A stretch of DNA of 50,662 nucleotides, from the NCBI GenBank assembly GCA_943788915.1, contig CALSSD010000003.1, forward strand, positions 1 through 50,662, written 5' to 3'. Below are positions 42,001 to 48,000 of this stretch, one piece after another. Every line of letters starts with the position of its first letter. The stretch's first letter is position 1. Made by a program: the position numbers. This stretch comes from an uncultured Acidimicrobiales bacterium (GTDB lineage: Bacteria > Actinomycetota > Acidimicrobiia > Acidimicrobiales > UBA10347).

Positions 42001-45000
42001 TCGGCAGCAATGACCTGATGTGGCGTCGGGGTGTGCGTGGTATCACCACCGACGCGGATCGTGCCGTAGATCGCATCCCACCCGGCGCTTTCGTCAGCAA
42101 GCTCAACGGCCCAGGACCTCGACCGAAGATGCTCAACACGATCTTTGAACGGGGTGCCGAAACCAGGGATCATCAACTGTTTAATGTTTGGAATTGGCCA
42201 TCGGGCCGAGGCGCCCTGGCTGCCGACCGTGTACACCCCAGCGATGTTGGCTACCAGCACATGACCGAGCTCACCTGGAGCGCTCTTGAAGAGAACCTCG
42301 GGCTGTAGCGTTCCACCATGGCTTGGTGGCTTATCGTTCTGATCATTGTCGGCGTTCTCGTGTTGCTCGTTGCGCTCTACGACATCGTGCAGCCACGCGA
42401 CCCAATCGTTCGCAACTTCCCAGTTGTTGGACACTTCCGCACGGTGTTATCCAGCAGCGGACCGAAGTTGCGTCAGTACATCGTTGCGGCCAACGACGAG
42501 GAACGGCCGTTCTCGCGAGACCAACGGACGTGGGTGTACGGAACCGCTGCCGGCGAAGGCGCCTACTTCGGTTTCGGCACCGACAATGTGATCGATCGTG
42601 ACAACCACATCATCATCAAACAAAGCACCTTTCCCGACACCACCCCGATTGGCGAGAACGCACCCCTCCCTTGCGCCAAGATCATGGGAGCGTGGCGAGA
42701 CCGTACCCACCAGTTCCGTCCAGAGTCGGTCGTGTATGTCTCGGCTATGAGTTATGGCTCGCTCAGCGCCCGTGCGGTCGAGGCCATCAATCGCGGCTGT
42801 GCGGTCTCTGGCGCCATGCACAACACCGGCGAAGGTGGTGTGGCATTCCCCCATCGCAATGGCGGCGCACTCATGTTCCAGTTCGGCACCGGCTACTTCG
42901 GCTGCCGGAACAAGGATGGCACCTTCTCATTAGAAGCTCTCTGTGAAACTGTGGCGTCCGCCGAGGTGGGCTGTATCGAGGTCAAACTCAGCCAAGGCGC
43001 CAAACCCGGACTCGGTGGCGTGTTACCAGGCAAAAAGGTTACGCCTGCCATCGCTGAGGCACGGGGCGTAGAGATCGGCCAAACCGTGTTCAGCCCGAAC
43101 CGGCACTCGGCGTTTCATGACGTCGACGGCCTCATCGATTTTGTCGAGACGATCGCCGATGCCACAGGCCTGCCTGTGGGCATCAAGTCTGCGGTTGGCC
43201 AGCAGGCGTTCTGGGACGAACTTGCCCAACGCATGGCCGCCCGGAACCAGGGCCCTGACTTCATCACGATCGATGGAGGCGAGGGCGGAACCGGTGCCGC
43301 TCCACTTGTATTCAGCGACCATGTTTCCTTGCCATTCAGAGAAGGATTCGCCCGGGCTCACCAACCATTCGTCGCTGCCGGGTTACACCAACACATCATC
43401 TTCTCGGGGTCTGGTCGGCTCGGGTTTCCGGCCGATGCACTGCTTGCATTTGCCATGGGAGTCGACATGATCGGTCTGGCCCGCGAACCCATGTTGGCAC
43501 TCGGCTGCATTCAGGCACAACGTTGCCATGACGGTCATTGCCCCACCGGTATCACCACGCACAACAAATGGCTGGTGCGTGGCCTTGACCCCACCGACAA
43601 GGCCACCAAACTCGCTAACTATCTGGTCGGGCTGCGGGGTGAGATCTTGAAACTCTCACATGCATGTGGGGTGGTCCACCCTGCGTTGGTCACCGCCGAA
43701 ATGATCGAGATGATCGACGCTCCTAACCGATCGGCGACAGTCGCTGAACTCTTCAATATCGACGCGGCCTTGCCGTCGATCGACGCAGACCAGCAACAGG
43801 CCATCACCCAGGTGATGGCGTCACTCGGGGAAAGCGCCTCAGCCGCCCACTAGACAGCCAAACCCTGGACCTCCTGGGTTTAGCCGCCGGCGAGGCATGG
43901 GCTGATCGCACCGAACAGCGTTTGTTGCTCGGGAAGTTCGCCATCGATTGTGGCTTGCACCAGCAGCAAACGACCAGCCTCATCGACGCAGTCGGTGGCA
44001 TAGTCGGGCAAGGTGAAGCCAAAGTCGGCAAGTGCATCACTGAGCGAAACGCAGTCGCCAACCAGTTCGCCGACGGGGAGCCGTTCGTCGGCGGCCGCAT
44101 CGGCCAGAGTGAACGCCAGCATCGAACGAACGGCATCAGGTGTTGCAAGGCCGTCGGACAGACACGCAAGCGAGTCTGCACCTACGAGGCCACCGAAGTT
44201 GTTCGCAAGCACCGATGTCATGACTTCACCGATGACAGTCGGTTCAGCGCACGCAAACAGCGCCTCAACCGTTGCATCGATCTCGTCGCGCTGCGGAGGT
44301 GGTGCCAACGAACTACCAGCGTCCTGCAGACAGGCTTCGATCGCTGGGGGTAAGGCAAAACCAACGTCGGTTCCGGCGTCAACCGGACCCTCGCCTTCTG
44401 GCGCAGCAGGTTGTGCACCAGTGGCTCGGCGAGTCGCAATCGTGGCGAAACACATCTCGTCGTTCGTGCCGTCCGCCCACAGGATGTAGGCCGGTTCAAG
44501 ATCAGGTGCCCGACGGCTGCGATCCCACACACAGTCCAGTTGCACGGTGTCCCCCGGTCGGAGGACGACCGATTCGGTCGGGTAATAGTTGTACTGCCAG
44601 TCAAAATCCCAATCAGGAATATCCAGCAGAATTCGCTCGCGGGGAGTACCAGCATTGAGCGTCATGCGAACCGACTTACCGATCTCGTGCTGATGCCCAA
44701 ACACCGAGACGATTTCGCCGCTGTTTCTCACAGGAATGGTGCAGGTTGATGATGCGATCCCCTCGGTCATGTCTGCGAAGTCCTCGGGTTTCGCCCGACA
44801 CACCCGATTGATGAAATCGGCTTGAACACCCTGGACCCCATACCTTTCGTACGCCCGAGCTAGGGCGACATCACGGTCGCACAACGGCCCAGTTTCTTCG
44901 GCGGTACACGGGATCTCGGCTGGGCCCAGATAGGTCTCGGTCACGATTTCGTCCAGATCCTGACCATCGGCCCAGTCGAGCTTGATGGTCGATCTGTCTT

Positions 45001-48000
45001 CGGGTGCGTCGGCGGTGTCGAAGTGGTAGTGAATCTGCAACACGATGAAGTCCCCTGGTTCAACCAGCATCCCCGCCCCGTCGGGAAACTCTGTCGGCAG
45101 TTGGCCTGGTGCCCAGCCAAGGAATAGCGCGTCGCCACTCCGCAGCCCCGATCCCCCGTAACATGACCATCCGCCGAGGTCGTCTTCGTCGGACAGGCGT
45201 TGTGCGTCCTCCCGAACCGAACCGGGCGCGAGATACCCGATCGCATGATGCACGATCTGCGTCTGGTCTGGCACGAACTCGAACCCCGACAGCCAGCGTG
45301 ACTCATCGATGTCAAGTTCATAGATCAGACAGCGATAGTCGTCGGCAACTGCCGTGGATCCTTGGAACGGTTCGAGCGGGCCGATCTCCACATCGGCGTC
45401 CAGCGCCACAACGCCGGTGGACGAACTGATGAGCGTCGTGTCCGCAACATCGAGAGGTGCACCCGCACCTGACCAAGCCTGGATCGCTTCGATTTCGTCG
45501 CTCCGCAGGCTGCGATTGTCGTGAAAGATGAGCGACAGGTCGCTGGCAGGCCACGGCGGCATGTAGCCGGTGGAAACCGCGGCGGTGATCCATTCGTGCG
45601 TATCGACGAGGTCAGTGGCCTGCTCGAGTCGCCAGTGGACAGCACCGGGACCTCCAGCGTTATGACAGCTCGCGCAGTTGTCGGCGAATATCGGAGCGAT
45701 CGATGTGCCGAAGTCGTCATTGAACACGACTGGTTCGATCACCGTCGGAGGCGCAGGAGTCGGCCGCGTCGCCGTTGGTTTCGGGGAGGCAGTAGGCACA
45801 GCGGTCGGGGGCATAGCGGTCGGCGGCATAGCGGTCGCCGGCGGCGCCGTGGGAGTGGTCACGGAGTCGGGGGCGGCAGCTAGATCCTGAGTGGCGCCAG
45901 CCACTGCATCGATGTCGCTTCCCGAACAGGCGGTCGCCCCCAACACAACAAGAAAGATGGCTAGAACCCACACACGGCGCTTCACCCCAGAATCGTAGGT
46001 CGATATCTCCCAAGTCTCCGAGCGGAACGTGGTCACAAAACCACTGGCTGCAACCAGAGCGGCCACCGGCCCGTGTGGGACACATCGAGATGCCATGATG
46101 TGGGCCATGACCGATTTGGGCATACCGGGCGTAGGCGATGCAGCAGTCATTGCCTCAGGCGGCAGCGCGCTGGTATACGAAGCGCTGAGCGGTACCGGTG
46201 AACGACTTGCGGTCAAGGTGTTACGGGGCATCCATGGCTCCGAGGTCACTCGCCGTTTCGACCGTGAGATCACCGCAGGCGAGCGGCTTGAGGGCCACCC
46301 CCACATCATGCGTATTCTCCACTCGGGGTTCACCGGCGCCGATGAGCCGTATCTGGTCATGCCGCTCTACCCCGCGGGCAGCCTGAACGACGAACTTGAA
46401 CAGACCGGTGCGTTTCCGCTTCACCGGGCAACCGGCGATGTAGCGATGGTTGCTGATGCTCTGGAGTTTGCTCATCAGCGGGGTGTCCTTCACCGCGACA
46501 TCAAGCCCGGAAACATCATGCGAGCTAACGATGGGTCGATCGTGGTCACCGACTTCGGCATCGCCCGTGTCGTTGATGCCGGCATCACGTCAGCGACGAT
46601 CGGTGCCAGCACCCCGCTCTACGCCGCTCCTGAGGTCCTAGCCGAGAACGAGGCCAGCGTACGTTCCGAGATCTACGGTCTGGGCGCGTTGTTATACGCG
46701 CTCCTTGCTGGCCGAGCGTCGTTCTCAGGCAGCGACAACATCTGGGCCACGATGAACCGGATCCGTACCGAGACACCACCCCCGATCCTCGGTGTACCAG
46801 CGCCCGTCATGCGTGTTATCGAACAGGCGATGGCGAAGCGCCCGGCAGATCGCCCCGCGAGCGCGCAACACTTCCGAGAGAATCTCCGCATCGCTCTGAC
46901 CGCCGATGATTCGTGGCGCCCACCACTACCCATCACCGTCGAACTGACACACAACGACGTTGTCCTTGGTCCGTCGATGCGAGACGAGATCAGCCCGTCT
47001 GTGGTGACTCCTACCTTCGAGGCTCCTCGTCTTGCCTCCCCCACCCTCTTGCCCCCAGTAGCCCCACCACCGCCGGCCCGACATCGGCCTGCACCTGCTG
47101 TAGGAACAGCCCCCAGCCGAGACTCATCGCTGGGAAAGATCCTGAGCGCCGCTGCTGTGCTCGTGTTGGTCGCAGCACTTGGTTGGTGGGGCACCTCGCA
47201 GCTTCTAAACCGCAACCAGATCAGCGACGCAGTTGTAGCGCCGCCCGTCGACAACTCGTTGCCTTCCCCCGGCAGCGAAACCAACGACAGTGACACCAAC
47301 GACAGTGACACCAACGACGAGTCACACCACCGACAGTGACTCCGACGATGTGAACATCGACGATCTGCCGCGCTCTCCCCAGATCCCCAACACGTTCGTG
47401 AGCTTCGCCGGTGACCATTTCTCGGCGCTGTTCCCCGAGGGATGGGCCCTCGCAGCACGCGACGTCGACGAGGGTTACGGCTTCCGCAGCCGATTCGTAA
47501 ACAACGACATGTATCTGAACGTCGACACCACGCCGAAGGAACAACGCGAACCTGGCGGCGACATCAGCGAAAGTGCACGCGACATCGCTGCGGGTATCGC
47601 CTCCGCATCGCTGGTACGCACCGAAGAGATCGACGGCCTCGTTATGCATTCGTTCACGTTTCGCAATCAGCAGGGTGTCGGAAGCATCGATATCTTCTTC
47701 GAAGTTGATGGCGATGGTTACGCCGTTGTTGCTGGCTCAGCCACCGACCCCGACACCGCATTTGCCACCGCCAGGCTTGTTGCGCTCAGTATTCGTAGCA
47801 ATCCTTCCTAAACCCGGTAGAAACCAATCATCATGAACAGCACAACCTTGTTCGATCATGTTGGTGGTCAACCGTTCTTCGACACGCTCGTCGATCGTTT
47901 CTACGACGGCGTCGAGACCGAACCACCACTGCGAGCCATGTATCCCCAGGACCTTGAGCCAGGCAAACGAGCCCTGGCCCTGTTTCTGGGTCAGTACTTC

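Follow-up and report, generated by a model that had tools for sequence, protein, structure and literature searches.

The window, the whole 50,662-nucleotide stretch of DNA that was analysed, carries on its minus strand a gene of a marine actinobacterium that is a relative of the animal copper enzymes making noradrenaline and amidated hormones. The locus raises the question of what such a protein does in a bacterium and how its copper would be reduced. The first-pass annotation had described a cytochrome c fused to a complete two-domain monooxygenase of the peptidylglycine alpha-hydroxylating monooxygenase (PHM) and dopamine beta-hydroxylase (DBH) type, and a table in a 2020 review gives PHM and DBH as eukaryote-only cuproproteins (PMC7435645).

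Gene start and membrane anchor

The reading frame is open on the minus strand from 46066 to 43880, which accounts for the 728 residues annotated earlier; the protein made is probably shorter, however, because the position of the lipobox and a divergent gene at 46095 point to GTG 45985 as the likely start (Table 1). In the 701-residue form the lipobox cysteine, C47 in the numbering used here, is residue 20. LGATA-C47 comes after a hydrophobic stretch, and a regular-expression search found a lipobox-like motif in 105 of the 113 near homologs of sufficient length. Read as sequence motifs, these features predict a surface-tethered, membrane-anchored bacterial lipoprotein, consistent with the lipoprotein-like extracytoplasmic product first proposed.

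The gene is single-copy in the genome. A promoter scan returned 0 sites, and 3 terminator-like sites were found against 1.4 expected. RNA runs X13 and X17 gave even coverage across the 30 bins of 12.6 kb and were not counted as expression evidence because such coverage looks like DNA; run X19 gave one 180-nt contig within the gene and X21 one read, and no expression evidence was counted from any of these four runs.

Table 1. Features of the gene (window coordinates; residues numbered on the 728-residue form)
Feature	Position	Strand	Basis
Whole gene, probable start GTG 45985, 701 aa	43880..45985	-	
Longer calls: 728 aa (P0001); 738 aa (P0002)	starts 46066; 46096		
Signal peptide II, lipobox LGATA-C47, predicted membrane anchor	45926..45985	-	sequence
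Pro/Thr/Ala-rich flexible tether, residues 48-112	45731..45925	-	sequence; variable among homologs
Class-I c-type cytochrome domain, residues ~113-213; axial M169 in MPPWP	45428..45730	-	PF13442, PccH, conservation
Haem motif, C131, C134, H135	45676-45662	-	C131-x-x-C134-H135
CuH domain, residues ~225-366; H273, H274, H346	44969..45394	-	profile alignment and homolog conservation
CuM domain, residues ~367-546; H458, H460, M538	44429..44968	-	profile alignment and homolog conservation
Cys-rich helical insertion within CuM domain, residues 387-442 (C387, C396, C423, C442)	44741..44908	-	not in PHM
W486-D-F-D-W490-Q491 loop, proposed haem-domain docking and electron-entry surface	44594..44611	-	inferred from covariation
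All-helical C-terminal tail with six Cys, residues ~572-728, after a disordered linker	43883..44353	-	model

A complete PHM/DBH-type copper core

Pfam recognizes the protein only marginally. PF01082 (residues 242-348, E 9.8e-6, 26.2 bits, cut 30) and PF13442 (residues 123-178, E 3.8e-5, 24.4 bits, cut 27) stay below cut, as annotated, but PF03712 (residues 435-541, E 5.2e-5, 23.2 bits) lies slightly above its whole-protein cut of 23. No NCBIfam model scored above cut-off for the query, and the 91 members scanned yielded no family model. The motifs CASCH, MPPW, IVHHA, QIHYH, GHQH and DEMC were all found in the protein. PHM was absent from a single-sequence PDB search at E<=10 and was reached by profiles alone: a profile of 91 diverse homologs with a mean column identity of 19% (A2) matched PHM at E 7e-18 and DBH at E 5e-16, with all six copper ligands aligned.

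Structure comparisons gave the same answer. The core is modelled (pLDDT 94.8, pTM 0.91) as two tandem beta-sandwich domains of the PHM/PNGase F fold, the arrangement that characterizes the PHM/DBH superfamily, and best fits closed PHM and DBH conformers. Repeat searches recovered the fold matches reported earlier, with Foldseek E-values of 7e-15 to 2e-10 against DBH and PHM and VIA Z-scores of 21-22.6; the next fold, PNGase F, followed at Z 8.4.

The residue numbers of the first-pass annotation proved one too low and are corrected here to C131, C134, H135 and M169 for the haem, H273, H274 and H346 for CuH, and H458, H460 and M538 for CuM. The CuH His-His...His set aligns with PHM VHHM and QVHY, and the CuM His-x-His...Met set with PHM HTH and DEMC. 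As had been claimed, all PHM copper ligands are kept, and they are nearly invariant among the 91 diverse homologs (H273, H274, H346 and M538 in 91/91; H458 and H460 in 90/91 each). The second sphere is likewise retained, with Y244, Q344 and Q491 (the last in 90/91) equivalent to PHM Y79, Q170 and Q272, the last being the hydrogen-bonding Gln of the CuM site, and with C246 and C302 (each 91/91) matching the C81-C126 pair. Alignment and model together confirm intact CuH (His3) and CuM (His2Met) ligand sets and, by fold and ligands, place the protein in the PHM/DBH-type uncoupled dicopper monooxygenase superfamily; architecture and fold were borne out as first described. One residue earlier listed with the CuH region, H348 (given as H347), does not belong to the PHM-type ligands: the position holds His in 118/118 near homologs but Asn in 65 of the 91 diverse ones, and by sequence the extra His is specific to the query's subfamily. 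The Cys-rich insertion occurs in 42 of the 91 diverse homologs and is helical in models.

A point absent from the first-pass annotation is that, in the alignment, the peptide-binding residues of PHM are missing. The positions of R240 and of N316 and Y318, which we take to accompany it in the PHM substrate site, are F456, F540 and T542 in the query, and these columns vary in the family (A/L/G/F at R240). R240 salt-bridges the peptide carboxylate in PHM (PMC12164859). Judged by its sequence, the protein would work like PHM but would not be a peptidylglycine-amidating enzyme, because R240 is absent.

The C-terminal tail is all-helical with six Cys in the model, as annotated, but it is not a family trait: only 20 of the 119 nearest homologs have it, and on this distribution it is dispensable. 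It gave no usable Atlas match and has no second copy in the genome.

A haem domain with a modelled position on the core

The N-terminal domain qualifies, by sequence and model, as a class-I c-type cytochrome with a predicted His/Met haem-c site. C131, C134, H135 and M169 are invariant in 118/118 near homologs, and PccH (4rlr) superposes at Z 5.7 (rmsd 2.1 over 74 residues). The genome carries haem-c maturation (two PF01578 genes), the cytochrome b of a bc complex and SCO genes.

The model places the haem domain confidently relative to the core (pTM 0.91). Covariation was analysed by mean-field DCA, a shallow calculation (427 sequences, Meff 330) without a shuffle control. It joins residues 173-179 with 478-500: the five best haem-domain/core pairs, L179-V500 (rank 13), S175-P484 (18), S178-I479 (19), L177-I479 (43) and L179-R478 (71), all fall on the CuM domain, and a second run was similar. 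The weaker pairs P140-D489 and G141-E461 lie beside Q491 and H460. The top 20 inter-domain pairs divide 14 to 6 between CuM and CuH, near the 57:43 share of columns. W486 and W490 are 98% conserved in 130 haem-bearing cores, and one haem-less clade (n=8) has lost W490 while keeping all Cu ligands. W490 is nevertheless ruled out as a strict haem marker and is not simply a haem-interface residue, because about 12 intact haem-less Deinococcota-type members retain W486 and W490. These data suggest that the haem domain docks on the CuM domain beside the W486-D-F-D-W490-Q491 loop and therefore that electrons may enter from haem to CuM, an entry side to which we give an even chance. The alignment to DBH 4zel_A begins in the haem domain of the model and in the DOMON domain of DBH (model 8-434, chain 46-499), hinting that the two accessory domains are similarly placed.

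A pan-bacterial family without a conserved partner

The family was first described as common in Acidimicrobiales. It is instead, on sequence searches, pan-bacterial, and its size had been under-called: 12,864 clusters at 50% identity were found (E<=0.001). Within Acidimicrobiia it is patchy (24 of 201 genomes), and five of eight congeners carry the gene. A phylum survey found at least 6 of 301 genomes positive, all in the query's own order, which does not show absence elsewhere because only five candidates were scored per genome. The query gene itself is an ordinary member, and Ilumatobacter nonamiensis (L085) is a cultured carrier. The tree, built with FastTree, was midpoint-rooted without a eukaryotic outgroup and is therefore silent on the direction of transfer. 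The phage collection held no match, and the plasmid collection a single one, within an 11.85-Mb record.

Relatives carry YceI, redoxin (P0201) or second-haem modules, and some have no haem. YceI fusions were seen in 21 of 59 scanned relatives, selected for length and diversity, and in 20 of 120 Deinococcota/Chloroflexota-side matches; the query's lineage has none, and the YceI gene that the genome does have is not linked to the query gene. At four loci a haem-less member has no cytochrome neighbour, and the family's chemistry therefore does not depend on the haem. A metagenome scan for a separate cytochrome partner of the haem-less Deinococcota forms returned mostly haem-fused relatives.

No conserved partner or operon that could hint at a substrate emerged across 81 loci. 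Neighbours reflect lineage synteny (thiolase 14/81 and SDR 14/81, the best families; rph/murI; ATP synthase), the 40 largest neighbour clusters contain no recurring stress, lyase or peptide genes, and no neighbour was conserved in a wider view of eight loci from haem-less or YceI-fused relatives. Some relatives are already named 'copper type II monooxygenase' in databases; other names are 'monooxygenase', 'cytochrome c' and 'YceI family protein'. We found no paper on bacterial members, subscription journals and supplements being outside the scope of the search, and the excerpts available of PMC2938197, PMC12665527 and PMC5461114 contain nothing on them.

Proposed function and alternatives

The explanation that we favour, and consider somewhat probable, is that the surface-tethered lipoprotein is a self-reducing PHM/DBH-type dicopper monooxygenase. 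That it is a copper enzyme using O2 is quite probable, and that the haem is its reductant is likely. The haem would be reduced one electron at a time by quinol of the membrane, via the cytochrome bc complex or quinol on a YceI protein, a module fused in many sister lineages. Seated on the CuM domain, it would relay these electrons by way of W486/W490-Q491-H458, first to CuM and then to CuH. That it replaces ascorbate we infer; its invariant ligands and the fixed position of its domain against the core (pTM 0.91, covariation) fit, and there is precedent for a copper monooxygenase being reduced by a bacterial c-type cytochrome (PMC8981238). O2 at reduced CuM would then abstract hydrogen from an activated C-H bond, hydroxylating a small substrate at the cell surface. 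The substrate would be small, probably hydrophobic and not a peptidylglycine, a class we propose only tentatively, and hydroxylation would most likely initiate the scavenging of dissolved organic compounds.

It is conceivable, if unlikely, that the haem only primes the copper of a peroxygenase or envelope peroxide-detoxifying enzyme with H2O2 or lipid hydroperoxides as co-substrate, as in LPMOs, the YceI-fused relatives supplying oxidised lipids. The YceI fusions and the redoxin-fused relative would fit, as would the protection of envelopes from lipid peroxyl radicals by a YceI-type lipocalin with cytochrome b561 (PMC9113575). Retention of the full two-copper PHM set and the Q272 equivalent speaks against it, because an O2-activating two-electron store needs that set and a peroxygenase does not; nor do stress genes recur in the 40 largest neighbour clusters.

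High-potential acceptors are common among His/Met class-I haems, and the weak sequence matches are the respiratory cytochromes CcoP and QcrC, both of which would suit an oxidase or dehydrogenase whose copper site oxidises substrate and whose haem hands the electrons on to the respiratory chain. Such reverse wiring is quite unlikely: the ligand set is that of monooxygenases needing an external reductant (PMC9064607), and in haem-less members without a cytochrome nearby the electrons would have nowhere to go. We regard as improbable a non-catalytic copper store, chaperone or sensor on the PHM scaffold, to which the stand-alone gene, its patchiness in class and genus and an adjoining divergent Ser/Thr kinase gene might point; the kinase does not recur as a neighbour at homolog loci, and the His3 and His2Met sites and second-sphere Tyr and Gln are kept across phyla. 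That the protein is a true peptide-amidating PHM whose substrates are secreted, Gly-extended peptides is barely credible: among solved structures PHM comes closest (Z 22.6) and the protein is extracytoplasmic, but R240, N316 and Y318 are replaced and no lyase or peptide neighbour recurs in the 40 largest clusters.

The self-reducing monooxygenase can be placed, speculatively, in a broader picture. In a very large, unstudied bacterial PHM/DBH branch, a built-in cytochrome c would sit on the CuM domain, span the cleft between the two domains and bias the protein towards the closed (binuclear) conformer. Single electrons from membrane quinol, which a YceI protein would have carried in the ancestral Acidimicrobiia form, would pass through it straight to the copper that binds O2, a quinol-haem-copper wire without ascorbate. 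The enzyme would act on a new substrate class, and a type listed under eukaryotes only in the 2020 metalloproteome review would gain a bacterial source. The PHM/DBH mechanism is disputed between an open conformer with long-range electron transfer and a closed binuclear site, with ascorbate as reductant and activator (PMC12164859, PMC9064607). In a bacterial homolog with a built-in, optically readable one-electron donor, reduction could be monitored with no ascorbate present, and the need for closure and for CuH could be put to the test. With thousands of sequence clusters and cultured carriers, the family may yield new catalysts for C-H hydroxylation, and it may also fill a gap in carbon turnover by microbes.

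Comparison with known systems

The closest known system is PHM, the PAM core (1PHM, 1OPM, 1SDW, 6ALA), with which the query shares the two-domain fold (Z 21-22.6, rmsd 2.5-3.6 Å over ~260 residues), both copper sites, the second-sphere and C81-C126 equivalents and an extracytoplasmic location. It differs in its fused haem-c domain, lipoprotein anchor and 55-residue Cys-rich insertion, in lacking the R240/N316/Y318 substrate site, and in having no PAL domain, either fused or in the 40 largest neighbour clusters of the 81 loci; identity is ~19-20%. DBH (4ZEL), with TBH and MOXD1, has the same core and ligands (Z 21.3 to closed chain A) and, like the query, an accessory N-terminal domain ahead of the core. 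In the query, however, an all-helical cytochrome c replaces the DOMON beta-sandwich (no Pfam match to DOMON at E<=1), the DBH dimerisation domain is missing, and DBH uses ascorbate. A functional parallel is the cytochrome CjX183 of Cellvibrio japonicus Cbp2D, from a YceI-containing protein, which reduces a bacterial LPMO (PMC8981238); LPMOs, however, are mononuclear His-brace enzymes of unrelated fold, and donor and enzyme are separate proteins there. The uncharacterised bacterial PF01082/PF03712 proteins are the query's own family, to which its subfamily adds H348, the insertion and, in few species, the tail.

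Identity of the gene product

The frame is open over 728 codons, is single-copy in the 4.9-Mb assembly and lies in DNA of even GC content. PF13442, PF01082 and PF03712 matched the protein at E 1e-5 to 5e-5, with PF03712 alone touching its cut-off. A profile of 118 near homologs found PHM weakly (E 4e-4); with 91 diverse homologs the profile reached E 7e-18 for PHM and E 5e-16 for DBH, with VHH, QxHY, HxH and DEMC aligned position by position. AlphaFold2 models were built for the core with tail (pLDDT 92.0, pTM 0.77) and for the core alone (pLDDT 94.8, pTM 0.91). Foldseek placed DBH and PHM entries at the top (E 7e-15 to 2e-10), and VIA-align gave Z 21.0 to 1sdw, with PNGase F next (Z 8.4) among 48,161 representatives.

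In the diverse set, H273, H274, H346 and M538 were conserved in 91/91 sequences and H458 and H460 in 90/91. Equivalents of PHM Y79, Q170 and Q272 were found in 88, 90 and 90 of the 91, Q272 being the hydrogen-bond partner of the CuM ligand H242 (PMC12164859). The haem site, C131/C134/H135/M169, was invariant in all 118 near homologs. The gene is real and its first-pass annotation as a haem-fused PHM/DBH-type protein stands; the residue numbers of that annotation were one too low, and H348, which it listed with the CuH region, is subfamily-specific (Asn in 65 of the 91). The host genome carries two PF01578 haem-c maturation genes, a bc-complex cytochrome b and a SCO gene.

The true start is probably GTG 45985, judging from the sequence: it yields a 20-residue signal with LGATA-C at its end, and the gap to the divergent kinase gene is then about 110 nt. 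A lipobox-like motif was present in 105 of the 113 near homologs of scorable length. The helical tail occurred in only 20 of the 119 nearest homologs, and congener matches to the protein stopped before it; it is therefore a late add-on. Its six cysteines and helices resemble three disulfide-pinned repeats. No match to the tail was found in Pfam or the Atlas, nor a second copy in the genome.

Coordinates of the monooxygenase gene, its neighbours and selected loci of the host genome and relatives
Feature	Location	Strand	Basis or remark
Haem-fused monooxygenase	window 46066→43880	-	
Helical six-Cys tail	window 43883-44353	-	AlphaFold2 model, sequence
FMN-binding glutamate-synthase-family protein	window 42318-43853	+	convergent flanking gene
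Membrane Ser/Thr kinase	window 46095-47339	+	divergent flanking gene
Truncated haemoglobin	window 47833-48204	+	PF01152, E 2e-31
Membrane-anchored YceI protein (L110)	C13:258072-258953	-	host genome, unlinked
Tandem paralogous haem-monooxygenase genes	L101:4196-9468		both YceI-fused by motif
Tandem paralogous haem-monooxygenase genes	L157:803-4783		
Broken relative	L106:5800-7295		two overlapping frames near C-terminus

The gene stands alone, as first reported: neighbour clustering over 81 loci revealed no conserved partner, the best family reaching 14/81, and neither flanking gene was conserved as a neighbour in relatives. The truncated haemoglobin, two genes away, was likewise absent from the recurring neighbours.

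Family size and descent

The bacterial family to which the protein belongs is very large and unstudied. At E≤0.001 the near-homolog profile matched 12,864 sequence clusters (50% identity), of which the best 150 were examined and the weakest may match the cytochrome part only; 6,251 matched at 1e-10 and 2,203 at 1e-30. Atlas look-alikes came from Actinomycetota, Myxococcota, Gemmatimonadota, Pseudomonadota and Acidobacteriota, and named matches extended the family to Chloroflexota and Deinococcota. Distribution was patchy within Acidimicrobiia (24/201 genomes; 5/8 congeners). Close relatives bearing names were Acidimicrobiales, and public runs containing the gene were labelled marine or seawater metagenomes. 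Judging by open-literature listings, we found no paper on bacterial members; NCBIfam held no model for the family, and in the table of one 2020 review PHM and DBM appear solely among eukaryotes (PMC7435645). An unannotated member lies in L168 (NZ_LT559118.1), an 11.85-Mb PLSDB "plasmid" record that is probably the Nonomuraea gerenzanensis chromosome.

Among 59 relatives picked by length and diversity, YceI scored above the Pfam cut-off in 21; other modules were AhpC/redoxin, EF-hand and a second haem. Proteins P0201, P0203, P0237, P0240 and P0250 include whole-unit duplications (redoxin-cytochrome-monooxygenase twice; EF-hand-linked twice), and some carry two haem domains with a His-rich C-terminal module. 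The break in the L106 relative reflects a frameshift or an assembly error.

In a FastTree analysis of 143 cores, without a true root, the protein fell in a 17-row lipoprotein clade (SH 97) nested in a 39-row clade (SH 99), whose remaining 22 rows include 14 YceI fusions. In this tree without a true root, the nesting suggests that the lineage exchanged YceI for a lipid tether. The YceI protein of L110 matched the profile of monooxygenase-fused YceI domains at E 1.5e-16, against 2.5e-7 for the genome's other YceI; it may be a partner in trans, although such proteins are common.

Position of the haem domain

With its pTM of 0.91, the core model points to a defined placement of the haem domain on the core. 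Mean-field DCA was run on 427 sequences (Meff 330), without a shuffle control, and on a smaller set. The couplings form a coherent patch. Residues 173-179, a loop that follows the Met ligand, paired with CuM-domain residues 478-484, 492 and 500 (ranks 13, 18, 19, 43, 71, 79 and 92), and the GGPG loop behind CxxCH paired weakly with D489 and E461. This patch places the haem beside W486-D-F-D-W490-Q491, and hence near CuM. R185-D243 (rank 72) contacts the CuH domain, and the top 20 inter-domain pairs divided into 14 CuM and 6 CuH, a split that, counted alone, is near the column share. W486 and W490 were 98% conserved in 130 haem-bearing cores.

Haem-less forms fall into two groups, eight actinobacterial members that make up a single clade (SH 99) and a distinct Deinococcota set; these two independent lineages (L119-L122; P0192/P0266-P0274) retain all six copper ligands. 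W490 was missing in 8/8 of the actinobacterial clade, which counts as one evolutionary event. The reverse is also seen: in another set of matches, all 20 that lack CxxCH kept W490, some 10 being intact proteins of Deinococcota type. No cytochrome neighbour was found at four haem-less loci; one adjoins an opposite-strand ORF with CxxCH and no evident signal peptide.

The core model fitted 5wja_D (rmsd 2.5) and 6ala_A (2.8) more closely than 1phm (3.4) or 8dsj (4.1), and of the two DBH chains Foldseek gave chain A the better match over chain B. Of these, 6ALA and DBH chain A represent closed conformers, 8DSJ a fully open one (PMC12164859; PMC4846438). The model's apparent preference for closed 6ALA and DBH chain A is a lead only, because the closed PHM structure comes from a mutant depleted of copper and the model contains no metal.

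Proposed activity and comparison with known enzymes

On balance we favour a pathway in which quinol or the bc complex would supply electrons to haem c, which would pass them to CuM/CuH for O2-dependent hydroxylation at the cell surface; a small, non-peptidylglycine compound is our tentative suggestion for the substrate. This chemistry is borrowed from PHM, which holds two external electrons on its two coppers (PMC9064607). A peroxygenase or peroxide-detoxifying role is unlikely, electron flow in the reverse direction somewhat more so, and copper storage or sensing less likely again.

Every testable feature of the PHM/DBH superfamily was found in the protein. In PHM, N316 and Y318 are grouped with R240 in the substrate site. 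The former two align with F540 and T542, and R240, which salt-bridges the peptide carboxylate (PMC12164859), aligns with F456 in a column of A, L, G or F. A Pfam scan detected neither DOMON nor PAL domains. With R240, N316 and Y318 replaced and no DOMON domain detected, the protein falls outside PHM proper and DBH, and a peptide-amidating enzyme is very improbable. Sequence and model together identify a variant PHM/DBH dicopper monooxygenase, a lipoprotein with a fused haem domain, predicted to work in PHM/DBH-like fashion while being neither enzyme itself. For the favoured donor pathway there is a precedent in Cbp2D, where the cytochrome of a YceI-containing protein activates LPMOs (PMC8981238).
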